The notes under the pieces were generated by a model that had not been told where the DNA came from, searched no databases, and saw only the letters and a program-made list of their open reading frames with translations. The translations under genes and the position numbers were made by a program. 64,000 nt of DNA from Candidatus Entotheonellaceae bacterium (GTDB lineage Bacteria > Tectomicrobia > Entotheonellia > Entotheonellales > Entotheonellaceae), in the NCBI GenBank assembly GCA_965238075.1, contig OZ250173.1:128001-192000 (forward strand), in the 5' to 3' direction. Of the stretch, positions 673-63,915 are shown one piece after another (within the stretch, counting starts at the first letter, position 1; each line of letters begins with the position of its first letter).

Positions 673-917
673 ATGCAAGCGAGAGAAACCGAAATGGCCG
701 AGTACATGGGCGAACGTTTTCTCGGTATCGAGAAGCGCATGGAGCAGGGATTTGCGCATGCCGAAATGGCGCGGGAACAGGACTTTGTTCATATCAACCC
801 GCGTCTGGACGACATGAACAAGCGCTTCGACGCCTTGAGGAATACGATGCTGATGCTTTACATCCCCGTTGCCTGGCCATTTCGGGCGCGGTGGTGACGT
901 ATCTTTTCTTCCAGTGA
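673..917 (+). pseudogene. Small coiled-coil protein with C-terminal TM anchor (DUF1640/CCDC90-like), frameshifted near 870
   Basis: IEKRMEQGF...RLDDMNKRFDALR coiled coil; hydrophobic tail LYIPV continues as LAISGAVVTYLFFQ* in another frame. Confidence 0.5.
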
Positions 918-970
918 CATATAAACCCCTCCCCCACCAGAGCAGCGTGCAGCGCAAATAACGTCAAAAT

Positions 971-1033
971 ACCCACTCATAAAGAGGTTGCCAGCAGATG
1001 CCTCCGGTTGTATAAATGATAACGGTTTTCATT
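971..1033 (+). promoter_or_regulatory. Sigma70 promoter (TTGCCA-N17-TATAAA, 988-1016) overlapped by a Fur-like box (1015-1033), with an upstream palindromic site (971-988)
   Basis: AATGATAAC-G-GTTTTCATT is a 9-1-9 inverted repeat (8/9 match); all elements recur at 59820-59888. Confidence 0.75.
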
Positions 1034-1079
1034 ATTATATTTCCGGCGAGTAACTCCGCCGGCGCCGGAGGGACCCCCT

Positions 1080-1328
1080 ATGGATTCGGTTGTTGCAGAC
1101 ATACAGGAGAGCCTGCTTCAGGACTTCGGCAGCCGGCTGCGGCAAATGCGCAAGATGCGGCGGCTGCGGCAACTGGACATGGCCTCGTTCGGGTTGAGCT
1201 ACAAGTACTACCAGCGGATCGAGGCGGGCCAGGTGAACCCCACCTTGATCACCCTGCATCGGCTGGCATCGGCGTTCAATGTGTCGGTGTACGATTTCTT
1301 CCGCCCGGAAGTGACGACGGAAGCATGA
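1080..1328 (+). CDS. XRE/Cro-C1 family HTH transcriptional regulator (82 aa), copy 1
   Basis: FGSRLRQMRKMRRLRQLDMA...YYQRIEAGQVNPTLITLHRLASAFNVSV is a typical HTH_3 pattern. Confidence 0.9.
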   Translation: MDSVVADIQESLLQDFGSRLRQMRKMRRLRQLDMASFGLSYKYYQRIEAGQVNPTLITLHRLASAFNVSVYDFFRPEVTTEA

Positions 1329-1472
1329 GGCTGCCCAATTTACGCAGGCCGTACACCGTTCGGCGTTAAGCGCTCCGCTTCAGGCTCATTGAACAAAGTG
1401 CCTGACACGTCCTTCCTCCCTACGTGCAGGCGCGCCCGGCAGGGGTCGGCGGAGGCCCCTGCCACTCCCTGA
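1326..1472 (+). ncRNA. Candidate structured 3'-UTR sRNA with C-rich anti-SD loop, copy 1
   Basis: Hairpins at 1341-1353, 1398-1433 (loop CCTTCCTCCCT) and 1438-1463; compensatory changes relative to the copy at 60187-60333. Confidence 0.55.
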
Positions 1473-1608
1473 ATCACCCTGAGCGGTGCGATCCGCAACA
1501 ACGCACCGCTCTCCCAAACCTGGGTGCAATTTCCGGCCACTCACCTTATACTGCCCTGTCTTTTCGGACAGCCAGTCAACCCGCCCAATAAGGTGAATCC
1601 TCGCTCTG

Positions 1609-2730
1609 ATGCTTGCCTACATCATTCGCCGCTTGATTCTGATCGTGCCCACCCTGTTCGGCATCATGCTGATCAATTTTTTCGTCATTCAGATTGTGCC
1701 GGGCGGACCGGTTGAGCAGTTGCTGGCAGAGCTCTCGGGCGAGGCCATCGAGGCGACCGCTCGCTTCGGCGGTGCGGCGTCGGACGACCCCATGGGGCGA
1801 CAGACCCAGGAGCAGGCTACGGGCGGCGCCTCAACCAGCGTCACCAGCAAATACCGCGGCGCCCGCGGGCTCGATCCGGATCTGGTGCGCGAGATTGAGG
1901 TCATGTACGGGCTGGACAAGCCGCTGCACGTGCGCTTTGTGGACATGATGCGCTCGTATCTCACCTTCGACTTCGGCGACAGTTTCTTTCAGGACCGGCC
2001 CGTGGTGGATCTCGTCCTGGACAAAATGCCGGTGTCCGTCTCCCTCGGCCTGTGGACCACCTTTCTCGTTTATCTCATCTCCATCCCGCTCGGTATCAGC
2101 AAGGCGGTGCGCGACGGCACCCGCTTCGACGTGACCACCAGCAGCGTCATCACCGTCGGCTACGCCATCCCCAGTTTCCTGTTTGCTCTCATTCTCATCA
2201 TCCTTTTCGCCGGCGGGCGTTACGTGTCGTGGTTTCCGCTGCGCGGCCTGACGTCGGAAAACTGGGCCGAACTGAGCGCCATGAGCAAGGTGGTCGATTA
2301 CCTGTGGCACCTGGTGCTGCCCATCATCGCCATGGTGATCGGCGGTTTCGCCACCCTTACCCTGCTGACCAAAAACTCCTTCCTGGACCAGATCGGCATG
2401 CAGTACGTCATGACCGCCCGCGCCAAAGGGCTGAGCGAGCGCCGGGTGTTATACGGCCACGTGTTTCGCAACGCCATGCTGATCGTCATTGCCGGGTTTC
2501 CGGGCGCCTTCATCAGCATTTTCTTCTCGGGCGCGCTGCTCATCGAGGTGATCTTCTCGCTCGACGGCCTGGGCCTGCTGGGGTACGAGGCGGCCATCAA
2601 ACGCGACTACCCCATCATGTTCGCCTCCCTCTACTTCTTCTCCCTGTTGGGCTTGGTGATGGGCATCGTCAGCGACCTGATGTACGCCTTCATTGATCCG
2701 CGTATCGACTTCGCCTCCCGGGAGGTGTGA
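1609..2730 (+). CDS. yejB: Microcin C/peptide ABC transporter permease
   Basis: MLAYIIRRLILIVPTLFGI, PGGPVEQ, SKYRGARGLDP, TKNSFLDQI, TARAKGL motifs. Confidence 0.92.
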   Translation: MLAYIIRRLILIVPTLFGIMLINFFVIQIVPGGPVEQLLAELSGEAIEATARFGGAASDDPMGRQTQEQATGGASTSVTSKYRGARGLDPDLVREIEVMYGLDKPLHVRFVDMMRSYLTFDFGDSFFQDRPVVDLVLDKMPVSVSLGLWTTFLVYLISIPLGISKAVRDGTRFDVTTSSVITVGYAIPSFLFALILIILFAGGRYVSWFPLRGLTSENWAELSAMSKVVDYLWHLVLPIIAMVIGGFATLTLLTKNSFLDQIGMQYVMTARAKGLSERRVLYGHVFRNAMLIVIAGFPGAFISIFFSGALLIEVIFSLDGLGLLGYEAAIKRDYPIMFASLYFFSLLGLVMGIVSDLMYAFIDPRIDFASREV

Positions 2731-8176: not shown

Positions 8177-10540
8177 CTAAATTCGGTGAGCGGGATCCGG
8201 CGTTGAGGCAAGCCCGTTTTTGGCGCGTCTTGCGAGATAGCATCCCACCGCTGCTATCGTCATCGGCACCACGCCCAAGACGATGAAGACGAGATCTCCG
8301 GGAAGCCGCAGCCACTCCAGCGTTACCACCAGACGCTGATTCAGAAATGCCTCGCTTCGGGCATGCCAGTATCCGTTCTCGAGCACGTCGATGAGCTGAA
8401 GCACCCCAACAGGAAAGAGGTTGCTCAGTGACATGAGCGCCAGACCGATATTCAACCCCCAAAAACTCACTCGGACATAGCGCTCCAAACGATCCCACAG
8501 ATCTACCGGCGCAGCCTGACGCAGCGCAAACACGGTCAGGGCCATGGCCAGCATACCAAAGACGCCCATCATGGCGGTATGCCCGTGGTTGGGCGTGAGG
8601 AGCGTACCCGCTTCGAAGTAACTGACGATCGGCAAATTGATCAAGAATCCGAAAATCCCCGCCCCCACAAAGTTCCAGAACCCAACCGAGATGAGAAAAT
8701 AAAATGTCCATTTGTGGGGGACGGCAACCGACTCGCCACAGATATCGCACTCGGACCGCGTGAGCTTGATGAAATCCCAGGCATCCAGGGTCAGGAGGGT
8801 GAGGGGCACGACTTCCAGTGCCGAAAACACGGCACCCAGTGCCATCGTAACCGTCGGGTGTCCGGTCCAGTACCAATGATGTCCGGTTCCGATAAGGCCG
8901 CCGCCCAGATAGAGGATGGCGTCAAGGTAGACCACACGGGCTGCCGTCAGGGGTGTAATGAGACCCAGTTTGTTAAAGATGATTGCGACCATGACCGTGA
9001 CGAACAATTCAAAGAAGCCTTCGACCCACAAATGGATGATCCAAAATCGCCAGGTATCAACGACCGAAAAATGGCTGGAGCCATCAAAGAACATGGCCGG
9101 CAGGTAAAAAACGGGGATGGCCGCCGCCGTATACAGAAACAGGGAGGCGATTTCTCCACCGTCCGCCCGCTTTCGGGCCGGCGCCACGGCGCGGAACAGC
9201 AGGATGATCCAGAAGATCAGGGCGGCGGCGAGAAGAATCTGCCACAGGCGGCCCAGTTCGAGATACTCCCACCCTTGATGACCCAGCCAATACCACATGT
9301 TGCCAAGGAGTTGATGGAGCCCGAGAAATTCGCCCAGCATGCTTCCACCGACAACGACAACCAAGGCGCCAAAGAGGAGGTTGATACCCGGAACCTGCCC
9401 GCGGGGTTCGTGTCCGCCCATTGCATGGGCAAGCAGGAGCCCACCGGCCACATAGGCCGTCGCCACCCAGAACACGGCAAGTTGCAGATGCCAGGTACGG
9501 GCCAAGTGACTGGGCAACAGCGAAGAGACATCAAGCCCGTAAAAACTTCCCGGGTCCGCACGATAGTGGGCAGTGGCGCCGCCTAACAGGACCTGGGCCA
9601 GAAACAGGACCGTCACCAGAGCAAAGAATTTGAGGGTTGCCAACTGACTCGGGGTGAACTCGCCGGGCAGCATCTGAGGATGGGCGTGGTCGGTGGCGCT
9701 TTTCCATCCCAGGTAGTCGAATTTGCCAAACACGAATAAAACCCCGGCGATTCCGCCAAGTAGTGCGATCAAACTGAGAGCGCTCCAAAGGAGGGACTGG
9801 CCGGTGGGTGTATTCCCCGCCTCGGGTTCGTAAGGAAAGTTGTTGGTGTAGGAAGCTGAAGTACCCGGGCGCGTCGCAACTGACGCCCAGGCCGTCCAGG
9901 CAAAAAAGGCCGTGAGCTGCCTTAACTCTGAAGCATCAGTAATGTATCCGGCTGGCAAACCTCGACTGCGGGCGGGGTGGGCAAAATGATCTCGCCAAAT
10001 GCCGAGTTGTCGCTCGAAGGAATTGACTTCTGGTAGGGTGAATACCAGGGTTTCCGTGGCTGCGTCGTATCGATTCTGCTTTAGGAGCAGGGCAGTTCCC
10101 GCGCTAACGGTTCGAGAGGCGGTCGAACCTGGCGGGGCATCAGCGGGTGCCGATAGGGCCAAGTAGTCTCGTGTGTCCTCGACCAGGTAGTGCAGGTAAG
10201 CGGCCGAGAAATCGGGTCCAAGGTAGCCGCCATGCCCCCAAATCGAGCCGTTATCCATGAGGCCGTACCTGAGAAAGACCCGTTGCCCGGCAACAATATC
10301 GTCTCGGCTGAAGAGCGGCTCCCCGGTTGGCCCCTGAACCGTCTCCGGGATGGGCGGCGCGTGGGAATAAGACTGCACCGTCATCCAGATGAGGACGGCC
10401 AAGCCACCGATCAGGACCAAAATGACGGTGTGTTTCCACCAAGGCGAGAGTGTTTCAGTGCGTGGGATGGTTGTGCGCATCTGGAGGTATTTCCGGTTGG
10501 CACGGTTGTCTGGATGAGACACTGTTCCCTGGAACGCCAT
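8177..10540 (-). CDS. norB: Quinol-dependent nitric oxide reductase (qNor); start may be 10480
   Basis: GSIWGHGGYLGPDF, SYTNNFPYEP, HLWVEGFFE, GTGHHWYW, NHGHTAMMGVFG heme/Fe ligand motifs; 787-aa single subunit. Confidence 0.93.
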   Translation of the reverse strand: MAFQGTVSHPDNRANRKYLQMRTTIPRTETLSPWWKHTVILVLIGGLAVLIWMTVQSYSHAPPIPETVQGPTGEPLFSRDDIVAGQRVFLRYGLMDNGSIWGHGGYLGPDFSAAYLHYLVEDTRDYLALSAPADAPPGSTASRTVSAGTALLLKQNRYDAATETLVFTLPEVNSFERQLGIWRDHFAHPARSRGLPAGYITDASELRQLTAFFAWTAWASVATRPGTSASYTNNFPYEPEAGNTPTGQSLLWSALSLIALLGGIAGVLFVFGKFDYLGWKSATDHAHPQMLPGEFTPSQLATLKFFALVTVLFLAQVLLGGATAHYRADPGSFYGLDVSSLLPSHLARTWHLQLAVFWVATAYVAGGLLLAHAMGGHEPRGQVPGINLLFGALVVVVGGSMLGEFLGLHQLLGNMWYWLGHQGWEYLELGRLWQILLAAALIFWIILLFRAVAPARKRADGGEIASLFLYTAAAIPVFYLPAMFFDGSSHFSVVDTWRFWIIHLWVEGFFELFVTVMVAIIFNKLGLITPLTAARVVYLDAILYLGGGLIGTGHHWYWTGHPTVTMALGAVFSALEVVPLTLLTLDAWDFIKLTRSECDICGESVAVPHKWTFYFLISVGFWNFVGAGIFGFLINLPIVSYFEAGTLLTPNHGHTAMMGVFGMLAMALTVFALRQAAPVDLWDRLERYVRVSFWGLNIGLALMSLSNLFPVGVLQLIDVLENGYWHARSEAFLNQRLVVTLEWLRLPGDLVFIVLGVVPMTIAAVGCYLARRAKNGLASTPDPAHRI

Positions 10541-19381: not shown

Positions 19382-19652
19382 CGTTGCTTCTCCTTTGCGT
19401 GTCGGTGTGTGCCAGACCCGGTACAAGGCCGGATGTCCGATTATAGGACAATGCCGACGCATGTTAAGGCCCCGGACGGAATCCATCATGAAGGGCAGGG
19501 GCATAAAAGGCGTATTAGATAAAGAGCATCGGGGGTAATGAGTCAGGCAGCCACTTGCCATTCAATGGGCAAGCGCTCGGCCGTGTCCATCAAAGATGCC
19601 GTAGCCGAATCTGGCACTCTGTGACAGCCATGTTGTTACTGGGCCTACTACT

Positions 19653-19810
19653 TGGAGAGTGCCAAAAAGTGTGGGGCGATTGCGGATTTGTGCGGGTGGT
19701 GGCATAAGTTGAGGAGGTCGGGTCTGTAAGTATCCAAAGGTATTGTTCAAGAAGGGCCGACTGCTGGAGCTCAGCGCTGCACCCTCCCCTGCCTGTTTTG
19801 GCACTCTCCA
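19653..19810. mobile_element. Miniature element with 15-bp terminal inverted repeats (ISKra4-like ends)
   Basis: TGGAGAGTGCCAAAA ... TTTTGGCACTCTCCA; the left end resembles ends at 29912 and 32995. Confidence 0.6.
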
Positions 19811-19851
19811 CCATTAACGAGACAACCGCCTGAAAACTGTCCGAAGTATTG
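19810..19851 (+). mobile_element. Right-end remnant of a DDE_5 (IS4/IS701-like) element
   Basis: Last codons TINETTA* followed by CTGTCCGAAGTATTG, matching IS ends at 21923 and 27245. Confidence 0.6.
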
Positions 19852-20568
19852 CCAATGCAAGCTGTGCGAAAACTGACGTGGTCACCAAAACGGTGACCAC
19901 GTACCTCCGTGCTGACCAGTCTGCTTTGCTGTCATGTGCCATCCCGTGTTCTCCTTGGGACTTCCGACAATCCCGCCTCCTCTACTTTTGCCGATGTTAA
20001 CACCAGCTTCGTATAAGTCTCCAATATGTATACTTTGAATTGGCGCCATTACTGGCCGAAACGGCAGTCGCGGCAGGCGCCCTGCCGAAAATTTCCACCC
20101 CTAATAACGACGTAGACTGCGCCTCGAAACGGTGCGGCGAATTTGTCCTGAAAGGGCTGTCGTCCGGTCCTGAGTGGGGTACGGATGGGAGATTTTGACG
20201 CCGCACCCTGCCGTGGCGTTTCCCCAGTTGAAGGTCGCAACATCGCGCCTGACACGCCTGGATGGATAACCTCCCTCTGCCCGCTGACCCTCTGTCGGGC
20301 AAGGCTTCTCTCCAGACTCACGTCCAACTCCCCTGCTACCCCTTGATGATTCCTTCGATGCGGTTGTCCTGGCGTTCACAGTTGAGGTGACTCCTAGGGG
20401 TGTATCGAGGCGGTCGCTCGCCGCAAAATGATGCCTGGTTAGGCAATCTGCCCAGGTGGTTCTGATGCCGACAGTTAGACACAACCGGCAAGGGCTTTTC
20501 CACAGTTTGTGGGGAAAAATGGTGCCTTGTAGGGACTGATTCGGGATGTTATCCGCTCCGAAGTGGTA

Positions 20569-39046: not shown

Positions 39047-39392
39047 TAGTGTCGTGACCGCTTCGGTGGTCGGCGATAACCAGGATGTCTTGGTCCATGG
39101 TCGACCTTGGGATGACCCCAACGCCCCCACCTTTCCGCGCAAAATGTTCCCGACAACCCCGGAAATATCTTTCTGCGATAAGATACGTTCAAGTAAAAGT
39201 TGTCGAGATCGAGAGGTCATCGCCTCATCAGCAACGAAACGTCACATCACGGATCGGGGGCAGATTGAACGGAAGCCGCTCGAAATCCGGCCGCCTCAGA
39301 AGTTTCGCAAGAGGTTTCGAAGAAGGAAGTCGTGCTAAAATTTTCCCTTCCCTTCCCAATCAACCGACAGATAGAGAAGGAGACCCACAACC

Positions 39393-39946
39393 ATGCCACC
39401 TTTCAACAAATCCGCCATCGCCCTGGCCCTGCTGATCGGAGTGTGTCTTGCTTGGCAGGTTGTGATAGCAGCGATGACGAGAGCTTGCAGCAGGAGGCAA
39501 TTGCGGAAATTGGTCCGACGACGGCGAGCGGAAGCAACGTGACCGGAGAAGCGGTTTTCACACAGGACGGTGACGACATCATGCTCACCGTTGATATCCA
39601 GAACGCATCTCCCGGGCTCCACGCCATTCATATCCATGCAACGGGAGATTGCAGTGCACCTGACGGCACCTCTGCGGGCGGCCATTGGAATCCTACCACT
39701 GAAGAGCACGGAAAATGGGGAGGGGATTCATTCCATCTTGGCGATCTCGGCAACATTCCTGTCGGCAACGATGGCACAGGCTATATTGAGCGGACGACAG
39801 ACCTTTGGGACATGGGCACCGGTTCCGACCGGGATATGGTTGGCAAAGCCATTATCGTCCATGCGGGGGAAGACGATTTCACCTCACAGCCTTCGGGCGC
39901 TGCGGGCGGGCGCATCAGTTGTGGAGTGATTGAACTGGAAGAGTAG
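39393..39946 (+). pseudogene. sodC: Cu/Zn superoxide dismutase lipoprotein with a frameshift in the signal peptide
   Basis: GLHAIHIH, SAGGHWNP, HGKW, FHLGDLGNI, IVHAGEDD, GAAGGRISCGVI; SD plus ATG 39393 is out of frame with lipobox LAGC. Confidence 0.8.
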
Positions 39947-52492: not shown

Positions 52493-53464
52493 TCAAGGAT
52501 CGGTGAGATGGAGATTCAGCGGTAGGTTCCCGTCTTCCGAGTCAACAATGTACTTCTTCACTTTGGGGAGGATCTTTTCCATGGCTTCCAGGTAGAGTCG
52601 GATCCTCGTTATATCGGGGGCCTTTTCGTACTCGGTAAGCAAGGCCAGAAACCGACCGCTGTTGCCGATGGCTTCCGCCGTTGTCTGTTCCTTGTAGCTT
52701 TGCGCTGCCAACACGAGCGTACGGGCCTCACCTCTGGCTTTGGGCAGCAGATTGTTCACATACGTCTTTGCTTCGTTGATCTTCTTGTCGCGGTCGGCCT
52801 GGGCGTTAACCACATCCTGGAAAGCCTGGGCGACCGACTTATCCAGCGTGATGGTCATGATATTGGCAGACGTGACCTGAACACCACTGTGGTAGCGGTC
52901 CAGTGCGGTTTGGGTACTGTTCTTGACGTGCTCCTGAATCGCCAGCCGTCCGGTGGTGAGTACTTCATCGACTGACATCCCGATCACGGCGGCGGTTAGA
53001 ATCGCCTCCGCCAAACTGCCAATGAGTGTTTGGGGCGCTTCGACTTCGAACAGATAATCAGTCGGTTGTTGAACGACGTATTGCAGCACCATACCCACGC
53101 CGATGATGTTGGTGTCTCCGGTCAAGAGTTCGATGCCTGTTATCACCTCTCCTTCCACCTCCGGGAGGACGAATCCTACTCCGCTTTTCATCACCGCGGT
53201 GGTCTTCAAGGTATCGACCCGATCCACGGGCCAAGGCAGCCGGTAATGTATCCCGGGCCCCAGTCGGGCGGCGAGACGTCCAAAGCGCCGTACCACGGCT
53301 TGCTCGTCCGCAGCCACAGCAAAAATACCCGAGGCGAGGTAGAGCAGTATGAGGACAACACCGAGGAGCCCCCCCAAGAAGACACGCTTCAGCATCCACG
53401 ACGCACCGGCGGTGGGAGCGATGTCATCATGGTCCGGGGGAGACTGGGAGGCGGTTGTGTCCAT
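52493..53464 (-). CDS. hflK: HflK-like SPFH protein
   Basis: TM, EQAVVRRFG, GIHYRLPWP, LLTGDTNII, AFQDVVNAQ, LPKARGEA, APDITRIRLYLEAMEKIL. Confidence 0.88.
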   Translation of the reverse strand: MDTTASQSPPDHDDIAPTAGASWMLKRVFLGGLLGVVLILLYLASGIFAVAADEQAVVRRFGRLAARLGPGIHYRLPWPVDRVDTLKTTAVMKSGVGFVLPEVEGEVITGIELLTGDTNIIGVGMVLQYVVQQPTDYLFEVEAPQTLIGSLAEAILTAAVIGMSVDEVLTTGRLAIQEHVKNSTQTALDRYHSGVQVTSANIMTITLDKSVAQAFQDVVNAQADRDKKINEAKTYVNNLLPKARGEARTLVLAAQSYKEQTTAEAIGNSGRFLALLTEYEKAPDITRIRLYLEAMEKILPKVKKYIVDSEDGNLPLNLHLTDP

Positions 53465-53467
53465 GAT

Positions 53468-54394
53468 CTACTCTTGTGTCTGCGGCTGCGGATCAGGGTC
53501 CAACAGTTGCAGGGCTTCTGCATCGGCAGGAAAGAAAACGGTGGTGTTAGCATCCAGAAATTTCTCGTAAGCCTCCAGGGTGCGGAGGAATTTATAAAAT
53601 GGCGGATTGGCACGGAAAGCCTTGGCGTAAATTCGCATGGCTTCCGCATCGCCTGCACCCTTCAAGCGCTCCCCCTCTTTGTACGCTTCGGCCAGGATAT
53701 AGCCCTTCTTCCGTTCGCCCGCAGCGATAAGCTTCTTGAATTCTCGCCCTCCTTCAGAGCGGTGTCGCATGGCGATCCTGCCCCGTTCCGCCTTCATACG
53801 CGCAAAGACACTGGCGCGGTTTTGCTCTGGAAACATCAATTGCCGCAGCCACACGTCCACCACCTCGATACCGTAGTGCGACAGCGCTGCCTTGGAGACA
53901 CGCCCCCGGATCTCGGAAAGAATGGTTTGGTACTGGGTTTCCTGGCCGCGCGGAGCGATTATGGCAGCGAATGGATAGGTCCCCAGAACCGTACCGATTT
54001 CCGCAAAGACGATGTCGATAAGCCGGGCCTCGGCCTGTGTCCCGGTAACTACACGCTCTAGAAAGGCCTCGGGTTCCGCGATCTTCCACGTCACCAGGCT
54101 TTGGACCACAATGTTTTTCTTATCCTGGGTGAGATATTCGGCCCTGGGAGGTTTAAAGCTCAACAAGCGTTTTGGCAGGCGTACCACGCTTTCGATGGGG
54201 GTGGGCAACTTGAAGCGCAACCCAGGCTCGTCGATGACGCGCATCACCTGGCCGAAGCGGGTAACCACCACGTACTCTGTGATGTCGACAGCAAAAAAAC
54301 TCGCCTTGAGCCCCACGGCAAGGAGCACGACTCCCAAAAGCGTCAGTGTTCTAACGAGCTTGGTTTGGAAGACTGTATGTTGCATTGTCAGCAC
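53468..54394 (-). CDS. hflC: HflC-like SPFH protein
   Basis: VVTRFG, PGLRFKLP, LTQDKKN, VFARMKAER, FYKFLRTLEAY. Confidence 0.88.
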   Translation of the reverse strand: MLTMQHTVFQTKLVRTLTLLGVVLLAVGLKASFFAVDITEYVVVTRFGQVMRVIDEPGLRFKLPTPIESVVRLPKRLLSFKPPRAEYLTQDKKNIVVQSLVTWKIAEPEAFLERVVTGTQAEARLIDIVFAEIGTVLGTYPFAAIIAPRGQETQYQTILSEIRGRVSKAALSHYGIEVVDVWLRQLMFPEQNRASVFARMKAERGRIAMRHRSEGGREFKKLIAAGERKKGYILAEAYKEGERLKGAGDAEAMRIYAKAFRANPPFYKFLRTLEAYEKFLDANTTVFFPADAEALQLLDPDPQPQTQE

Positions 54395-54416
54395 TCACGC
54401 GGTCTGCTAGGCCCAC

Positions 54417-54573
54417 TAGAGCATTTTCGGTTCGGAATGAATCGCACAATGCTCCGAGGCGGTCATTCCGGTCTTGACCCGGAATCCAGCGGCCCCCGAA
54501 AACCTCTGGACTCCGGCTTTCGCCGGAGTGACATGGATTTAATGTCAAGCCATTATGATCCAAAAGTGCTCTA
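54417..54573 (+). mobile_element. MITE copy 4, inserted at the CTAG containing the permease-HflK stop codon
   Basis: CTAG on both sides (54416-54419 and 54571-54574). Confidence 0.85.
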
Positions 54574-56781
54574 GCGATTTTGCTTCATGCCATTGGGTTC
54601 GAGCAACCACAGATCGAGTTCGTTGACATCTTGACGAACCGGCCGAAGGAATTTCTGCACCGGTGGAAGGACCTCCTCGGCGGTCTCGAGGCGCAGGCGA
54701 AATCGGGTGAGATCGGGGGCATCCTGGTATGCGTTCTGGCGCAGGCTGTAGGCCATTGCGTCGCCCTCGGCCCGCAAGATCTTTTCTTCTCGAAAAGCCA
54801 AGGCTTCCTCAATCATGGCCGCGGCCTCCCCTGAAGCGAGATTCACCTTCTCTCCGGCAAAGGTCAGGGCGCGATTTATGATATGCATTTTGTCTTCCTG
54901 TGCGCTGGCCACGTCCCGAAAAGCCTGATGCACGTCCTGGGGGGCATGCAGGTTGAGGAAACTGAGGGATACCACCTGCATGCCGGCCTGGTAGGCGTCC
55001 AAGAGATCTTGCACCCGCGCCAGACTTTGGCGCTCCATTGTGCCCCGCGCGGTCGTCAGAACCTCGTCAATACTGATTGTGCCGACCGTCTCTCGCAGCA
55101 CAGACAGGATCAGACTGCGTACGAGTGCGTCCGGCGCCGAGATGTTATAGGCATAGGCAATCGCATTATGGATGCGATATTGCACCGCAACGCTAAGGTC
55201 AACAATGTTGGCATCACCCGTTAACACGAAGGCCTCATCATCAACCTTCTCCTTTTGGAACCAGAAGCCAGTTGAGGCGATCGCCATGGGTACAGGGTTG
55301 CCCGGTCCGCCAACGGTCAGACGCTGTCGCGCCTGGGCGCGCACCGTGCCGCTCTGCGGGTCAGTGCTTCTGAAGCCGAGTTCAATGCGTCGGATCAGGT
55401 CCTTGTGCACGATCTGATGACTCGCAATAGGCCAGGGCAGACGGTAATGAAAACCAGGTGACAACTCCCCGGCCACAATTTGGCCAAAGCGCGACTTAAT
55501 GCCTACTGCTCCCGGTGGCACAGCAAAAATGCCGCTCGACAGATACAGCAGGGCTAACGCGAGCGCGGTAGCGCCTTGTAAACGCACGGCCGTCAGATGC
55601 ACCCCTGTATGGGCGGTGAGGCTATCGCGCACCCCCAGCCATTCCTCTGGTACATGGGTGCGTCGCATACTGAGGAACAACAAAGCTATGAAAATCACGG
55701 CGGCAGCGACTTTGACCTGTTCAGGCACCCCGCCGGTAGCACGTCCAAAGGTCGCCTGCGGTTCTATGTCCCAGGCCTGATAGAGCCAATTCAACGTATA
55801 GCCGGCCAACAGGGTCATCACCACAATGGCGCCCAGGTAGATGGCAACGATCTTCCGTCCCAGAAATTTCAACAGGATAGGAAAACTTCCCAGGTTTGTG
55901 GCTGGACCTGCCAGCAGAAACACCAGCGCGGCCCCAGGGTTCAACCCCTTCAGCACCAGTGCCGCAGCAATCGGGGTCGAGGAGGACGCACACGTGTATA
56001 TGGGGATCCCGAGGATGAGCATGGCCACCATGGTGGTGAAGCCGCCGCTCAAATAGCGTTCGATGATGGAGGCAGGCAAGAGGACTGCCACGAGGCCCGA
56101 CAGGACAATGCCCAGCACCAGCCAGTGACTGGTATCGTCCAGCAAGTCACGGAAAGCATAGGTAAAGATCGTTCGGACAGTCGTATAGGACCCAACTGAT
56201 GCTCCTGGTGTGACTGCCTTGTCGCTTTCAGCATGAGATAAGTGGGAAGTATGATCATGGTCATGAGTATGGGTATGATGCGGTGTGACTGTATGCGGCT
56301 CTGGCAGAGTTGTGTCGGGATGGGAGGCGTCCTGTTCTACCGCAGGTTCGGTGGTGGTGGTTTCCCTCTCGCCCCAAAAATTGGTTGCGATGCCAGCAGC
56401 GATCGCCGTGGCCATAGCAGACAAGGGGCGAAAAATGGTCATCAGTGGATCCAGCAAGGCGTAACTCAAGCTGATTGAATCTACTCCCGTCTCCGGGGTT
56501 GCAATGAGAAATGAGACAGTCGCCCCTGGCGTTGCGCCCTGTCGCCGCAATCCCAAGGCCGTAGGCAACACCCCGCAGGAGCACAGAGGTAGTGGCATGC
56601 CCAGCGTTGAGGCCCATAACACCGACTTGATCTTACCGGTACCGAAGAAACGCAGGAGGGTTTTCAGAGGCATGAGAACAGCGAGAACACCGGCGACCAG
56701 AAAGCCGAACAGGAGAAAAATGCCTGCTTCTTTGACCACAAACCAGGTCTCTTGCGCAACCTGGAGCAAAAACTCAATCAC
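54571..56781 (-). CDS. Fusion of a DUF318/SO_0444-type (ArsP-like) metal permease with His-rich loop and a C-terminal HflK domain
   Basis: PLPLCSCGVLP, FLIATPETGVDS, HHTHTHDHDH, PIYTCASSSTP, FLLAGPATN; then GFHYRLPWP, LTGDANIV, AFRDVASAQED, APDLTRFRL in one frame. Confidence 0.88.
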   Translation of the reverse strand: MIEFLLQVAQETWFVVKEAGIFLLFGFLVAGVLAVLMPLKTLLRFFGTGKIKSVLWASTLGMPLPLCSCGVLPTALGLRRQGATPGATVSFLIATPETGVDSISLSYALLDPLMTIFRPLSAMATAIAAGIATNFWGERETTTTEPAVEQDASHPDTTLPEPHTVTPHHTHTHDHDHTSHLSHAESDKAVTPGASVGSYTTVRTIFTYAFRDLLDDTSHWLVLGIVLSGLVAVLLPASIIERYLSGGFTTMVAMLILGIPIYTCASSSTPIAAALVLKGLNPGAALVFLLAGPATNLGSFPILLKFLGRKIVAIYLGAIVVMTLLAGYTLNWLYQAWDIEPQATFGRATGGVPEQVKVAAAVIFIALLFLSMRRTHVPEEWLGVRDSLTAHTGVHLTAVRLQGATALALALLYLSSGIFAVPPGAVGIKSRFGQIVAGELSPGFHYRLPWPIASHQIVHKDLIRRIELGFRSTDPQSGTVRAQARQRLTVGGPGNPVPMAIASTGFWFQKEKVDDEAFVLTGDANIVDLSVAVQYRIHNAIAYAYNISAPDALVRSLILSVLRETVGTISIDEVLTTARGTMERQSLARVQDLLDAYQAGMQVVSLSFLNLHAPQDVHQAFRDVASAQEDKMHIINRALTFAGEKVNLASGEAAAMIEEALAFREEKILRAEGDAMAYSLRQNAYQDAPDLTRFRLRLETAEEVLPPVQKFLRPVRQDVNELDLWLLEPNGMKQNR

Positions 56782-56875
56782 CTCTGCTCCCCCCACACCA
56801 AATGGCCAACCGTAAGAAGAGGGAAAAGAGAGGAAGAAAAGTCCCCCCCTCTCTTCATCCCTCTATCTTTCCAGC

Positions 56876-57910
56876 CTATTGGGGTAAGTACCTTTTATCC
56901 AACTGACAGGCGACGGAATAACTCGGGTCGACCGCGTTGGCGATCTCCAAGCTAGCTGCCTGCCCCAGAAGCTGGTTGGCCTCAAGCTTGTCATACCCAT
57001 AGTCTTCCACGAGCCAGTTGATCAGGTCGACACAAGCCAGCCTAAGGGCATCGATTAAGGGCCGTGTACTGCCGATGGACATGATATGGGTATCGTTTAC
57101 CAGTCTCGGCCAATTGATGCTTTTTCCCTTGATCAGATCAACGGTGAATTGCACGTCCATTGAGGTTTCGATGGCAGCACCATCGATCTCGCCATCCCCT
57201 TGGGCGGCATGGCCATCACCGATCATGAGCAACGCACCCGGCTCAAACACCGGAAAGTACATGGTGACGCCGGATACCACCTCATTGAAATCCATATTGG
57301 CACCGTGGGGGCCTGGGGTCAGGGAACTCCAGCACTCTTTTCCCGCCGTGACTGTCCCGATGGTTCCAAGGAATGGACGCAGGGGGACTTCCACTCTGCC
57401 AATTTTGCTCTTGGGCATGTCCAGGATGCCAACATTCCTCTCCAGGTCCAAGTTCCAGACAAAGAGGATATCCGGCGCCGGTTCGGTAATCATGGCCGTT
57501 TTGTACTCCGGTTCCAAGGTGCCAAAGTAGGGGATCGAACCGCCCCAACCCCAGTCCCGATTCGGAACGACTTTTTCGAGATGGACCACCAAGGTGTCCC
57601 CAGGCTCAGCCCCTTCGATGTAGAACGGACCGGTCTGGGGGTTCACCCTACTCAGATCGAGCTTGGGAAAGAGGGTCTTGTCAGTGGTGGAATAGACATC
57701 ATTAGACGCATCTCGCGTGGTGGTGATCACCGTATCACCAGGTGAGATGCGCATCGCCGGGGGGTGGGAATGGCAATAGGTGAAATACACCGTGTCACCC
57801 GGATCGTATTCCACGGTCGCCGCCGCCGCCGGGAGCGTCAAGATGAGCCCCATCATGACAGCCAACATCACCTGAACAGCTACCATCTTGCTATTGCACA
57901 AATGCCGCAT
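56876..57910 (-). CDS. Acetamidase/formamidase (FmdA_AmdA) family protein with signal peptide
   Basis: NPQTGPFYIEGAEPGDTL, PFLGTIG, HGANMD, GDGHAAQGDGE, AIET; N-terminal hydrophobic stretch ending AAAA. Confidence 0.88.
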   Translation of the reverse strand: MRHLCNSKMVAVQVMLAVMMGLILTLPAAAATVEYDPGDTVYFTYCHSHPPAMRISPGDTVITTTRDASNDVYSTTDKTLFPKLDLSRVNPQTGPFYIEGAEPGDTLVVHLEKVVPNRDWGWGGSIPYFGTLEPEYKTAMITEPAPDILFVWNLDLERNVGILDMPKSKIGRVEVPLRPFLGTIGTVTAGKECWSSLTPGPHGANMDFNEVVSGVTMYFPVFEPGALLMIGDGHAAQGDGEIDGAAIETSMDVQFTVDLIKGKSINWPRLVNDTHIMSIGSTRPLIDALRLACVDLINWLVEDYGYDKLEANQLLGQAASLEIANAVDPSYSVACQLDKRYLPQ

Positions 57911-57990
57911 ACATGTCTCCTTTGCCTCATTACATAAAGATATAAAGAAAATCGTCACTTAGCTGAAACGTCTACAACACGACCTCTCCC

Positions 57991-58968
57991 CTACTGCCCC
58001 GCCACGTCCATCGGCCTCACCTCCTCCCTGTTCTGGAGCACTGGCGAACGCGGGTCATGAGTCCGAAAGTAGTAGGTGCTGTCATAGAGCATGTGGAACA
58101 ACTCAGAATCCAAAGCCAAGACCATTGTTGTTTGGGAATCGATGGAGCGGCGATAGGTCTGCAGCGTCCGCAGGAAGGTGTAGAACTCCGGATCTTTGCT
58201 CAGCGTCTCAGCATAAATCCGCGCCGCTTCGGCTTCCCCTTCGCCCCGATACTGCTGGGCAATTTTCAAGGCCTCGGCCATGATCGTGGCTTTTTCTCGG
58301 TCCGCGGTGGCCCGGATCTTCAGCCCTTCCTCCTCCCCTTCGGAGCGGTATCGCATACTGATGCGCGTACGCTCCGATTTCATGCGAGAGAACACACTGC
58401 TGCGGTTCTGAGCTGGGAAGTCCAAGCGCTGCAGCCGCACGTCGACCACGGCAATGCCGTAATCCCGCAGGGCAATCTCACGACATTCCCGGGCGACGGT
58501 GGCAAGGATGGCCTCAGCCCGGTAGCCCTCGGGATCCGTTGACACAAAGGCCGTCAGAGGATGCTGTCCGATGGCAGCGCCCAACGCTGCAAAGAGGATA
58601 TCGCTCAGTCGTGAAGCTGCTCCCGAGCGATCGAAAACGGTCTGGAGGAACTTTTGCGGGTCGGCAACGCGCCACAAAACAGCGCTGGCAGCGATGACAG
58701 TGGTCTTTTCCAGGGTGAGGAATTCGCCCAAAGGAGGAACGAGGATAAACAGGCGATTATCGAACCGGGTCACATTATGATAGGGATATTTGAGCTTCAG
58801 CCCCGGAGTTTTGATGACCCGTATAGGATTGCCGAATGCCGTGACCACCGCATATTCGCTGGCATCGACCGTGAAGAAGCAGAGGGTGCCCAGGAATGTC
58901 ACGCAAACGGCTGCACCCAGCAACACGACGGCCCTCACGCGTCCTTTGCCACCGGAGGTCATGGGCAC
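57991..58968 (-). CDS. hflC: HflC-like SPFH protein
   Basis: AVVTAFG, PGLKLKYP, VFSRMKSER, RSEGEEEG, DPEFYTFLRTLQTY. Confidence 0.88.
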   Translation of the reverse strand: MPMTSGGKGRVRAVVLLGAAVCVTFLGTLCFFTVDASEYAVVTAFGNPIRVIKTPGLKLKYPYHNVTRFDNRLFILVPPLGEFLTLEKTTVIAASAVLWRVADPQKFLQTVFDRSGAASRLSDILFAALGAAIGQHPLTAFVSTDPEGYRAEAILATVARECREIALRDYGIAVVDVRLQRLDFPAQNRSSVFSRMKSERTRISMRYRSEGEEEGLKIRATADREKATIMAEALKIAQQYRGEGEAEAARIYAETLSKDPEFYTFLRTLQTYRRSIDSQTTMVLALDSELFHMLYDSTYYFRTHDPRSPVLQNREEVRPMDVAGQ

Positions 58969-59819
58969 CGAACCTCTTATGAGAGAAGGAGCTAAATGGA
59001 AGGAACCCTGCGACGAATCAGGATTTGCCCATCCTTAGCATTACTTTCCTGATACTGTCAAGCGTCAATATTTCGGGCAGTTCTGACAGCAAGGTAATCG
59101 CACGAACCCTCCAATTTCATAGTGTTGCCCAACGCAACCGAGAAAGGAGGCGCTTCGTGCGACTGCTTCAGCGTTACTGCCGTAACTCACCCATAGCGGC
59201 CGGTCACATGCGCAACCTCCACCTGGAAGTTTGACCCTACAAGTCGGCGGTATCCCAAAAACAGACAGGGTCTTCACCGATTCCAGGCGTTTGGCACGAA
59301 AGGGTGCCGAAGAAAAAGCGGTTGTTTACCCGGTATTGGCATATGGAGATGTTCCGGGTTTATACATCGGACTCTAATGCCAGTCGTGCGCCTCGGGCAT
59401 CCGCAGGCGGGGTGTCGACGGCTTTCAGGTCCGACACGATGACAGCGCATTGCAGGCGAGACAAGGTGGGCGGGAAAAACCAGAAATAAAGCACTGGAAC
59501 AGAATATGGTGAGCGAGAGGCCCCTTTTCATAAAGTTGATCGGGGAAGGAGGTATTATCGGTGCGACGCCCTCCCCTAAGCAGGACTCTGTTCATAGCCA
59601 TCGGCGTTTTGACGACTTGAGAAATACGGCGCTGAGATTGTACATCCCGGTTGCCTCGACCCTTTTGGGTGCGATGGTGAAGTATCTCCTTTCTCCGAGT
59701 GAAATAGGCACCGCGTCAACCATCGCCGTGGCGTAACCAACTTGGAGTCCTGGAGACCCCGCTGGTTTCGGCCGTGCAAGCCATGCAGCTTAGCCCGCAC
59801 AAGGCAACAGCGCCAAGAT

Positions 59820-59888
59820 ACCCACTCATGAGAGGGTTGCCGATACTGGTGTCAGGGCGTATAAATGAAATTGATAACGGTTTTCATT
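59820..59888 (+). promoter_or_regulatory. Palindrome (59820-59837), sigma70 promoter TTGCCG-N17-TATAAA (59837-59865) and Fur-like box (59870-59888), copy 2
   Basis: ACCCACTCATGAGAGGGT; AATGAAATTGATAACGGTTTTCATTATTAT; homologous to 971-1038. Confidence 0.75.
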
Positions 59889-59939
59889 ATTATGTTACTG
59901 TGGCGGGAAGAACTTCCAAACACCGGGGGTAAGCCGTTC

Positions 59940-60189
59940 ATGGACTCGGTTGGTGTGAACCTGCAAAAACTGCGTGCTTCAGGATTTTGGCTGCCGGCTG
60001 CGGCAGATGCGCAAGATGCGGCGGCTGCGCCAAATGGATTTGGCCTCGTTCGGGCTAAGCTACAGGTACTACCAGCGGATCGAGGCGGGCCACGTGAACC
60101 CTACCCTGATTACCATGCACCGGCTGGCATCGGCGTTTGACGTGTCGGTGCACGATTTGTTCCGCCCGGAGATTCCAACGGAGGCCTAA
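59940..60189 (+). pseudogene. XRE regulator copy 2, +1 frameshift in an A5 run (or shorter intact form from GTG 59974)
   Basis: MDSVGVNLQK aligns to copy 1 MDSVVADIQE; remainder LQDFGCRLRQMRK...TEA lies in the next frame. Confidence 0.75.
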
Positions 60190-60333
60190 GGCGACTGATT
60201 CCGCGCAAGCCGCGCTCTCGTTGTCGCCTTAAGCGCTCCTCAGCTCACCCTTTGAACACATTGCCTCACGCCCTTCCCCCTCTGCGTCAGGCACACCCGG
60301 CAGGGGTCGCCGTGGGCTCCTGCCACTGCCTGA
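60187..60333 (+). ncRNA. Candidate structured 3'-UTR sRNA, copy 2
   Basis: Hairpins at 60202-60214 (inside stem 60187-60231), 60262-60293 (loop CCTTCCCCCTCT) and 60299-60324. Confidence 0.55.
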
Positions 60334-61743: not shown

Positions 61744-63393
61744 ATGTATACCTTGGACGTGTTGAATCCCGTCGCCCAGCAAAGGGGCGTGTTGACCACG
61801 AGGCCAATCAACCCGCGGCCCGCCAGCCTGCACCGCAAAACCGTCGGGCTGCTGTGGAGCGGTACGCATGGCGGCGACGTGGCGCTGAAACGCGTGGGCG
61901 AGCTTATTCAAGAGATGTTCACCGACGTGACCGTCAATTTCTACACTGGCGGCAACTACCCTGCCCCGCCATCGATCGTCCGGCAAGCCGCCGAGGAGTG
62001 TGACGTGGTCGTCGGCGCCACCGCCGATTGAGGAACTTGCGCGTCGTGGATGTGCCACGACATGATCGAGATCGAGAAGATGGGCAAGCCCGCCGTCCCT
62101 ATCGTCTCGGGACGTTTTGAGAAAGACGCCGTCGCCAGCTCCCGAACCTTCGCCATGCCGGATCTGAAATTCGTTACCGTGCCGCGGATCTACCGAAACC
62201 TCGCCCTGAATGAATGCGTCAAGCAAACGGAACTGGCGATTGACAACCTTGTCCACGCCCTCGTGAGCGGTGGGCAGGAGGCCGAGAACGGCGCCGACGT
62301 CCACGATCCCGAGCGGCGCTATTCGTACGACGCCGATGACCGCTACGCCGCGGTGCTGCGCATGAACGAGGATTTCCTGAGCCGCGATTGGGGCGACAGC
62401 CTGCCGCTTTACCCTGCTACCCGCCAGGCGGTTGATGCGCTTCTGCAAGGCACGTGTCTGCCGCCGGATCACCTGGTGTGCGACATGCCGCCCGGCTTCG
62501 GGCTCGCCACGGTGGAGAAGATCGCCATCAATGCGGTCATGGCCGGCGCCCTGCCGGAACACATGCCGGTGGTCATCGCCGCGGTCAAGGCGTTGTCGGA
62601 ACTCGGCCCGCACGGCGGCAAGTCGCTGCTGATGTCCACCTCACCGCACGCCCCGGTGCTGGTGGTGAACGGCCCCATCGCCGAGGAAATCGGCCTCAAT
62701 CCGAGGTCCGGGCTGGGACCGGGGCGCGACAACCGGGTCAACATCACCATTGGCCGCGCCTTCTCCCTGTGTCTGCGCAACATCGGCCAGTGGTATCCCG
62801 GCCACATGGACATGGACACCATCGGCACGACCCGCAAGTTTGTGCATTGCCTGGCCGAGAACGAGGCCATGAGCCCGTGGGAGCCGTTCCACGTCGACCG
62901 GGGTTTTAGGCGGGAAGAAAGCGCCATCAGCATCTTCGTCACCGACGGCGAACTGGACGTGCAGGATCAGGGCAATACCAGCGCCGAGGGGCTGCTCAAG
63001 ACCATCGCCTACGGCTGCACCTTCGGCACCCGCAGCCTCGGGGAGCGGCACGACGCCGAGCGGCTCATTTTCATGCCGCCGGACGTCGCCCGCCCGGTGG
63101 GGGCGCAGGGTTTCAGCAAGCGCGGCGCCAGGGAATTCATCCATCACAACGCCAACGCCAGCCTCGGGAAGATGATCCAGTACATGCCCCTGGAGGGCGA
63201 AGCGCGCGTCGCCGCCAACTGGAAGTGGCTGCTGAACCACAGCGAGCAGGAGCGCCTTGGGATGACCGTCCCGGTGCTCGAAAGCGCCGAGCGTTATTAC
63301 GTTCTGGTCATCGGCGCGGACCGCGCCAAGACGCTGGTGATGCCCAGCAGCCCGAGCCCGGCAACCGTCGGCATCGACGCGTACCGGCCTTGA
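61744..63393 (+). CDS. Probable selenoprotein (549 aa): UGSC-like domain with Sec-Gly-Thr-Cys fused to a ~350-aa C-terminal domain; UGA 62029-62031 = Sec96
   Basis: The two track ORFs are in one frame separated only by TGA: GATAD-U-GTCASWMCHD...EKMGKP; SECIS-like hairpin follows; SD AGGAG before 61744. Confidence 0.8.
62043..62061 (+). promoter_or_regulatory. Putative bacterial SECIS hairpin
   Basis: GTCGTGG-ATGTG-CCACGAC, a perfect 7-bp stem starting 11 nt after the UGA. Confidence 0.6.
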
Positions 63394-63435
63394 GCAGGTT
63401 GAGCACCACAGATGAAGCGCCTGCCATTCCCGGTA

Positions 63436-63707
63436 CTAATTCGCTGTGAGAGCCCAGGCGCACCAACTGTAACACGTCCCCGTTGGGCTTCCGGTAGATG
63501 AGGAGCAGATCGGGTCTGATGTGACAGTCCCGATGATCGCCACTCCCCCGTCAAAGGGTGATCGCGGTGCAGCGGCTCGAGCGGCAGGTCGTTGACGAGC
63601 GATACCAGCACCCCGACGAGAATGGTATCCAACGCGGCGCGGTTTCGGCCCCTTCGCACGCGTTTGTAGTCCCGTTTGAACCGCCCGGTGCGCTCAATCC
63701 GGTGCAT
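63436..63707 (-). pseudogene. yafQ: YafQ/RelE family toxin, frameshifted near 63540
   Basis: FKRDYKR...HRDHPLTGEW, then DHRDCHIRPDLLLIY...LVRLGSHSEL in another frame. Confidence 0.8.
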
Positions 63708-63915
63708 TCAGGTCTTCCATCAGCGCATCGACAGTCTCAAAAGACCTTACATTGCCGAGCCGGGCGTCGCGCATGGCAGCGATGGTTTCGTCATTTGGCA
63801 CCAAGGGATCGAACGGGAGGGCTTTTTCAGCCACCACGCGCATCAGCATCATGCGAAAGGCATCGGACACCGTCAATCCAATACTGGCCAGCACAATGGT
63901 GGCTTCCTCTTAGCG
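63694..63915 (-). pseudogene. dinJ: DinJ/RelB antitoxin lacking an intact N-terminus
   Basis: EEATIVLASIGLTVSDAFRMML...LPFDPLVPNDETIAAM; an in-frame TAA lies just upstream of EEA. Confidence 0.75.

Follow-up and report, generated by a model that had tools for sequence, protein, structure and literature searches.

The small XRE regulator considered here resembles most closely, in structure, the controller proteins of restriction-modification (R-M) systems: C.AhdI, C.BclI and C.Esp1396I are likewise stand-alone XRE domains of about 80 residues, and the first two are its top structural matches. In the accessible parts of two reports, controller proteins are described as dimers on an 18-bp palindrome 5' of their own gene, an arrangement which is predicted for the XRE module as well, and as activators working from the distal operator through region 4 of sigma (PMC2691842, PMC3351150). 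Unlike in the R-M systems, the XRE module has one operator and not two, with a Fur box where repression occurs; its recognition helix and its motif are different, the latter not being the GACT-AGTC box; its sites are found at several iron promoters, and no restriction or methylase gene was seen among the neighbours scanned in the Tectomicrobia loci. The controller fold is present, the restriction/methylase partner and the paired operators were not found, and by membership XRE is not an R-M controller protein.

A second regulator beside Fur in iron homeostasis is known from Shewanella oneidensis, where the available parts of two papers present SO2426 (SsoR) as a positive regulator of siderophore genes (PMC3127752) and as part of a Fur-SsoR loop (PMC12442407). 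SsoR has the role proposed here for XRE but is of the response-regulator type, unrelated in fold, motif and lineage. Secondary regulators placed under a master iron repressor also include IdiB of Synechococcus (Crp type), PchR (AraC type), which senses a ligand, and RipA of Corynebacterium (under DtxR), which represses iron-using genes; the tiered logic is the same as that proposed here, carried by other protein families, whereas XRE has no sensor domain. In Myxococcus xanthus, loss of Xre228 alters the expression of iron-acquisition genes and the protein is placed upstream of pigment synthesis in phase variation, but, unlike for the XRE module, neither an operator nor a Fur box is given for it in the accessible portion of the report (PMC3986340). 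As to RNA regulators, IsrR is described, in the part of the source at hand, with a Fur box at its promoter and C-rich loops on stem-loops, as in the present module (PMC9410917); it differs from our 3' element in that it forms a gene of its own, ends in a terminator and belongs to an AT-rich genome, while the 3' element is a predicted 3' tail in a genome of 62% GC, confined to one genus.

Neither the regulator nor its motif was found in the literature searched, most subscription papers lying outside that search. A catalogue of 223 XRE motifs (PMC12565409), its whole table searched by terms, returned no match, although degenerate letters could hide one, and the available text of FeGenie (PMC7005843) makes no mention of XRE. 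Second-tier regulators beside Fur are already known, while a controller-type XRE protein in that role, with this motif and this regulon, was not found described. Tectomicrobia are an uncultured group including the Entotheonella sponge symbionts, and to our knowledge almost nothing is known of their gene regulation. The stretch of DNA analysed here, hereafter the window, comprises 64,000 nt from a member of this group and yields a regulator, a predicted operator, a predicted regulon and a circuit testable in E. coli with synthetic promoters.

The Duplicated Module

The module is present twice, at window positions 962–1472 (copy 1) and 59811–60333 (copy 2), with 75.5% identity over 531 nt (E 4e-93), so that the duplication of about 500 bp claimed in an earlier note on this DNA is real; in the 3.35-Mb single-contig genome no third copy was found at the DNA or protein level. 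Between the copies, identity amounts to 14/18 in the palindrome, 7/17 in the promoter spacer, 18/19 in the Fur-like box, 83% in the coding region, 84% in the second hairpin, 52% in the leader and 45% in the flanks. These values bear out what had been described from the letters, namely conserved -35 and -10 hexamers enclosing a diverged 17-nt spacer, a conserved 19-bp Fur-like box and diverged linkers; the neighbours are also as given there, an FbpC-like ATPase and yej-hugZ for copy 1 and a metal-permease/SPFH operon for copy 2, the HugZ-like gene scoring below the NCBIfam cut-off. Some details had to be revised: the XRE proteins, said to be near-identical, are not, copy 2 being frameshifted and its in-frame part differing at 12 of 71 codons; and of three hairpins claimed only two are conserved, the third being rejected because the first 70 nt 3' of the XRE stop are 62% identical between the copies and carry indels among orthologs.

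Within the genus, the module occurs in front of the yej operon in 5/5 congeners with 84–94% identity, a second copy being found in one of them (G002) and a cut one in another (G003). Proteins with 89–99% identity belong to Candidatus Entotheonella and Tectimicrobiota. A search with a profile built from 40 homologs recovered the gene from this genome and from nine others of the phylum, 17 in all having been searched; several of the seven misses are fragmented assemblies.

The XRE Protein

The copy 1 gene (1080–1328, plus strand; ribosome-binding site at 1067–1073, same strand) is intact and encodes an 82-residue protein of the HTH_3 family, matching PF01381 with 36.3 bits against a cut-off of 23. 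Its model consists of five helices (pLDDT 85.8), and a domain above the curated cut-off together with a five-helix fold places XRE among the HTH_3 transcription factors. The top five Foldseek rows for the model are C.BclI and C.AhdI, at an rmsd of about 1 Å and 28–35% identity. A homodimer is predicted with a score of 0.49, compared to 0.00 for the best control, the runs agreeing in at least 91% of contacts with a partner pLDDT of at least 74; among 30 solved pairs 20 attain the mark used for this score, as does one single chain out of 23, and the score may reflect the likeness of XRE to solved controller dimers. Apart from the HTH no sensor domain is present. No specific family was found in PHROGs or NCBIfam, every NCBIfam match falling below its cut-off, and a profile search of 1.84 billion representatives returned mostly generic multi-HTH proteins. 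As to the acidic patch in helix 2 by which class II activators contact region 4 of sigma, residue D33 is invariant among the homologs and adjoins L32, the putative counterpart, by our alignment, of the activating Glu25 of C.Esp1396I.

The Palindrome as a Predicted Operator

An 18-bp palindrome precedes the gene in copy 1 (971–988), its last base being the first base of the -35 hexamer, and sequence comparison locates the corresponding predicted operator of copy 2 at 59820–59837; the cross-genus consensus is ACCCACT-YRYR-AGTGGGT. In 40 Tectomicrobia-type loci, which are kin and not independent samples, the palindrome and a Fur box lie together 5' of the XRE gene in 19, the palindrome 23–43 nt before the Fur box. 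XRE is inside an operon with no operator nearby in 13 and, where the start of the operon is present, a Fur-type box and no operator is found there; one locus (L096) has a Fur box and no operator, and the remaining seven are either short or truncated, or carry the site at a greater distance.

Relatives sharing the YKYYQR recognition helix (47–59% identity) carry palindrome-like sites at the gene start in Rokubacteria, Eisenbacteria and Desulfobacterota; one of them (L102) has no such site. In the Rokubacteria and Eisenbacteria relatives, XRE faces away from a ferritin-like gene near FTR1, with the palindrome between the two, while paired sites, seen only in relatives of the Desulfobacterota type, are frequent there, with 3–6 mismatches, and the neighbours are of the primase, SUKH or SNF2 type, no iron gene being named. 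Since the motif tracks the recognition helix and not the iron genes, the palindrome is most likely the operator of XRE itself, and it is highly probable, judging from these sequence patterns, that XRE binds it.

Across nine XRE-bearing genomes, sites with at most two mismatches number 0–4 each and 18 in total, against 3 for the reversed control, whereas in six genomes without the XRE gene they number 5, against 9 for the control. The extra sites in the XRE-bearing genomes stand in front of imelysin, DUF2325, ApbE and TonB/hemin genes; two sites in G008 and G010 and one of the four in G007 look like chance, and G005 has no site within two mismatches.

A divergent arrangement of XRE and a ferritin-like gene, with FTR1, a multicopper oxidase or ApbE nearby, was observed in L105, L106, L072, L074, L075 and G006, metagenome contigs included; in G006 (L127:8799-9071) both XRE types flank a single ferritin-like ORF. 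Verrucomicrobial relatives (L107, L108, L110 and L076) have a YKYYQ(H/A) helix and a different but related upstream near-palindrome. In the congeners, an operator and a divergent ApbE gene lie upstream of a D-serine-dehydratase-like gene (window 19562–20500), both being missing here.

Promoters and Operator Geometry

The earlier note missed the main point: promoters of iron-uptake genes repeatedly carry the palindrome, and at a fixed place. A sigma-70-type promoter is predicted in copy 1 at 988–1016 (plus strand), with TTGCCA (988–993), a 17-nt spacer and TATAAA (1011–1016), and in copy 2 at 59837–59865 (plus strand), with TTGCCG (59837–59842), 17 nt and TATAAA (59860–59865); a strict promoter scan called neither, because the last base of the -10 hexamer is A. 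When all 61 offsets between operator and promoter are scored with sigma-70 weights, the placement of the -35 hexamer on the last base of the operator is among the top 3 in 11 of 12 XRE promoters and among the top 4 at 12 of 16 other sites. Taken by itself, the -10 hexamer, which shares no base with the operator, scores highest at offset 23, with means of 4.9 at self sites (n=11) and 4.6 at other sites (n=15), to be read with the proviso that the 28 sites of this test were picked after the -35 test, three misfits were dropped and orientations were chosen by the analyst. The operator centre falls at about -43.5, a position fixed relative to the -35 hexamer as in class II-type activation, and the promoter-side half-site is the better conserved half of the palindrome. 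Lambda cI acts at PRM from a similar position.

A genome-wide scan for operator plus promoter returned the two module copies and, third, a Fur-boxed promoter absent from the training set, that of DUF2325 at C1:1439703; these are 3 matches scoring at least 20, against 0 in four one-strand shuffles. The same layout is found at the DUF2325 promoters of G002, G004 and G005; in this genus, these promoters keep only the promoter-side half of the palindrome, with 5–7 mismatches to the whole. In L106 and L072, the divergent ferritin-like gene has a TTGAC-17-TA promoter that directly adjoins the site. The -35 hexamers of the operator-bearing promoters are near consensus, and a Fur-type box follows operator and promoter at many XRE and iron-uptake promoters.

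One further operator-like site (C1:2628433; L121:6434) lies in the spacer between the -35 and -10 of a strong promoter, between a cytochrome c and an amidohydrolase gene. Its standing is doubtful: it is kept in G001 and degraded in G005, and the region was not found in 3/5 congeners.

Fur Boxes and Iron Neighbourhood

The 19-bp Fur-type box of copy 1 (1015–1033), which covers the predicted start site (near 1022), and that of copy 2 (59870–59888) are the best and second-best sites of the genome when scored with a matrix for which other genomes supplied 27 Fur-like sites, the DUF2325 promoter ranking third, although the matrix is partly circular, its training sites having been chosen with a consensus drawn from the module box. 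Three sites score at least 24 in this genome, against 0 in three shuffles, and sites upstream of imelysin and fbpA genes are picked as well; with the same partial circularity, a box overlapping the promoter and common to iron-uptake promoters is what would be expected of a Fur regulon. The Fur array of copy 1 is 6 nt shorter than those of the congeners and of two RNA-run contigs.

Pfam-named iron or Fe-ABC-type genes lie near XRE in 8 of 9 genomic loci, the ninth having DUF2325 and ApbE, and in 14 of 21 metagenome loci, the other 7 having none among the ORFs scanned and many of the loci being close kin (neighbour ORFs scanned: 106 of 146 and 83 of 138 predicted). The genes concerned include Fur-rubrerythrin fusions, fbpABC-like ABC transporters, imelysins, di-haem oxidoreductases, FTR1, ferritins, TonB receptors and FecCD. 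The claim that the module is an iron-responsive regulator kept by selection, and not a transposon, is well supported by the orthologs at the copy 1 position in all five congeners, by the iron-gene neighbours in other genera and by the first and second ranks of its Fur-type boxes.

A Fur-rubrerythrin/ferritin-like fusion of 333 aa is encoded on the minus strand just upstream of the window (G000:C1:123690-124688; L178:690-1688). Its gene is 4.3 kb away from copy 1, on the upstream side, and diverges from fbpABC; the same fusion is also found near XRE in G007 and G008; the protein binding the box is probably this fusion.

Proposed Mechanism

On balance, we read the XRE module as a second-tier iron regulator, that is, a Fur-gated and self-activating activator of iron uptake. 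When iron is plentiful, the Fur-family protein, probably the Fur-rubrerythrin fusion, would occupy the box at the start site and keep the XRE gene off; when iron falls, basal transcription would supply XRE, which would bind as a dimer to the palindrome centred at about -43.5, touching the -35 hexamer, and there recruit RNA polymerase in the manner of a controller protein at its distal operator. XRE would thereby boost its own gene, in positive feedback, and the promoters with the same layout, namely those of the imelysin/di-haem clusters, DUF2325, ApbE and the TonB receptor/hemin ABC genes. Since XRE has no sensor domain, Fur would supply the signal and XRE would sharpen the response, the whole forming a coherent feed-forward loop. 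The computed basis of this reading consists of conservation, iron neighbourhood, recurrence of the motif, fixed geometry and fold; that XRE activates is rather likely. If activation holds, the module is a controller-type XRE switch under Fur, a pairing not found described.

The main rival, unlikely but to be taken seriously, is that XRE binds the same palindrome and represses: by blocking the upstream element and the edge of the -35 hexamer, it would cap its own gene and iron uptake once Fur is released, either making the response a pulse or setting a ceiling that guards against over-uptake. Repression is what most XRE proteins do, and activated promoters often need no near-consensus -35 hexamer such as those found here. 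The repressor reading also draws on the Rokubacteria and Eisenbacteria sites, which lie at the start of the XRE gene, on the C1:2628433 site, which occupies a repressing position in the promoter spacer, and on L32, by which (in our alignment) the activating Glu of controller proteins is missing; besides L32, the near-consensus -35 hexamers and C1:2628433, the 13 loci of 40 with no nearby operator, L096 with its Fur box alone, the lack of close sites in G005 and the half-site-only DUF2325 promoters count against activation. What speaks for the activator is that a repressor could tolerate many positions, yet in several genera the promoters of XRE and of its presumed targets keep an offset that does not vary by a single base, and that it is the promoter-side half-site which is better conserved.

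The 3' Hairpins

Downstream of the activator proposed above, two hairpins are predicted on the plus strand of each copy: in copy 1 at 1398–1433, with an 11-nt C-rich loop (1411–1421) and found only in this genus, and at 1438–1463, GC-rich and with no U tail; in copy 2 at 60262–60293, again with a C-rich loop, and at 60299–60324. Region 1395–1475 folds better on the plus strand than its shuffles (z -3.56, 0/200), the minus strand of 1329–1475 giving z -0.02, and nine sequences of the genus retain the C-rich loop, with 96% of their cells paired. The one-sided changes mostly create or remove G-U pairs, which favours the plus strand, and the element stays behind XRE although what lies further downstream is of three different kinds. 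The possibility that a short antisense ORF underlies the G-rich strand of hairpin 1 was discarded, since indels among orthologs disrupt its frame.

The earlier note proposed a regulator-plus-sRNA cassette, of which the regulator part is well supported. In the sRNA part, which is compatible with the activator reading and which we regard as rather doubtful, the 3' end of the Fur-controlled transcript would be processed to an sRNA that silences iron-using proteins, its C-rich loop pairing with their Shine-Dalgarno sequences. The fold, the pairing, the kept loop and the pattern of G-U changes fit this, as does the lack of any Rfam match at gathering scores within the window, and a Fur-controlled iron-sparing sRNA, IsrR, is reported in the accessible part of its description to use C-rich loops (PMC9410917). 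On the other side, the element was found in 0 of 21 folded XRE loci outside the genus (best outside match E 0.038); covariation is limited to one double change, with a score reached by 91 of 500 shuffles; the 79-nt piece of copy 2 folds no better than shuffles (z -0.82); no U tail follows; and a crude duplex scan of 4725 predicted starts gave, in its top 60, ordinary purine-rich sites among which no iron theme could be made out by eye. The data would fit just as well with a 3' stem-loop that protects or terminates the transcript. Contigs from RNA runs cover the module from fbpC into yej (X1) and window 944–2160 (X5), none of the 32 contig matches listed holding the hairpins as a piece of their own; coming from 4 of the 22 listed runs, these contigs show neither ends nor levels, may include DNA, and are not counted as evidence.

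A combined scheme is quite unlikely as a whole: a controller-type switch would have been rewired for iron in Tectomicrobia, with a variant form in Rokubacteria and Eisenbacteria, the operator activating and the Fur box repressing in a positive-feedback switch, possibly with memory, and in this genus the transcript would also release a 3' anti-Shine-Dalgarno RNA. If true, one promoter would turn uptake on and iron use down.

Other Possible Readers of the Palindrome

It is improbable that the palindrome belongs to another regulator of iron loci, SufR-like or the Fur-rubrerythrin fusion, or that its conserved half is an extended promoter element, XRE being merely one of the genes controlled. A SufR-like gene does adjoin XRE in several loci, and both the DUF2325 promoters with only a half-site and the XRE loci with no operator would be accommodated in this way; the motif, however, follows the XRE helix into Desulfobacterota loci where no iron gene is named, and the five sites found in G011–G015, where the XRE profile finds nothing, are all devoid of the promoter and Fur layout, G009 having no site at all.

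Descent and Decay of Copy 2

A tree of the XRE proteins, built on 38 rows and as few as 57 columns and with many of its forks open, places both copies within the genus clade (100/98) and joins the two copy 2 proteins, of this genome and of G002, to each other (95/87); the duplication therefore took place within the genus. The copy 2 gene (59940–60189, plus strand) is a probable pseudogene: read from its ATG (59940), the frame is lost before ten codons are complete, in an A-run near 59965, while the G002 ortholog is intact. The frameshift could be an assembly error; decay is nevertheless the probable explanation, judging from the residue changes, since over 71 codons the protein differs from that of G002 by 7 replacements and 2 silent changes, and four of the replacements occur in this genome only. 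They include K42R in the recognition helix, where 40 homologs all have the same residue, and M34L, at a position that hardly varies.

In G002, genes for DUF2325, a TonB receptor and an ABC transporter of the hemin type adjoin the intact ortholog in back-to-back orientation. Upstream of copy 2, the sequence matches that of G002 only as far as about 59445; the DUF2325 promoter next in line there is found here at C1:1439735, 1.25 Mb away. A link between the SPFH operon and the module was dismissed, 57000–59440 continuing into the module in 0 of 12 other genomes. Copy 2 thus looks like a copy cut from its iron island, and its adjacency to the metal-permease/SPFH operon like a rearrangement; the duplication, taken earlier as a signal of function, is real, but its second member is a damaged remnant in a secondary place. 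The DUF2325 gene of this genome (G000:C1:1438425-1439735), which judged from G002 formerly adjoined copy 2, retains the operator-promoter-Fur layout and is frameshifted, and no match to the ApbE and ferritin-like genes of a congener was found in this genome. Copy 1 would be the working gene, with most of its targets lost; frameshifted second copy, frameshifted DUF2325 and missing ApbE and ferritin-like genes make this a genome in which the loss of a regulon can be seen under way.

A repeat of about 115 nt (window 59065–59180), resembling an IS end, is present in many copies in the congeners, often at contig ends in G003, and lies 640 nt upstream of copy 2; the statement that no IS ends are visible must be qualified to this extent, the module itself being confined to two copies. 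The remnant of a small multi-copy ORF was duplicated along with the module, its end at 822–921 (plus strand), outside the regulatory unit and missing from this place in G003 and G004, corresponding to 59604–59706 (plus strand) with 78% identity over about 100 nt. That the module is a dispersed mobile repeat or an assembly artefact, as this repeat and this remnant might suggest, is barely tenable and largely refuted by its having two copies only, some 75% alike, in place of the many near-identical copies at variable sites of an insertion sequence or MITE, by its fixed synteny in 5/5 congeners, by the pairing of the copy 2 proteins inside the genus clade and by the 14 synonymous changes between the copies.

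Other Features of the Window

Remnants of the small ORF family just mentioned extend over 646–921 and 59506–59736, with related pieces elsewhere in the genome and no match in Pfam, NCBIfam or PHROGs. The operon preceding copy 2 (52493–58968) contains three stand-alone SPFH genes, an ArsP_1 permease-SPFH fusion and an acetamidase-family gene, and its part at 57000–59000 has no close DNA match in 12 relatives. At 63297–63910, a YafQ-like toxin ORF matches its family over the first 58 residues only and is preceded by an antitoxin-like fragment, recognized by eye, the locus being probably a decayed bacterial toxin-antitoxin pair. The window also carries a nitric oxide reductase of the long NorB type (8177–10540) and a Cu/Zn superoxide dismutase (39332–39946).
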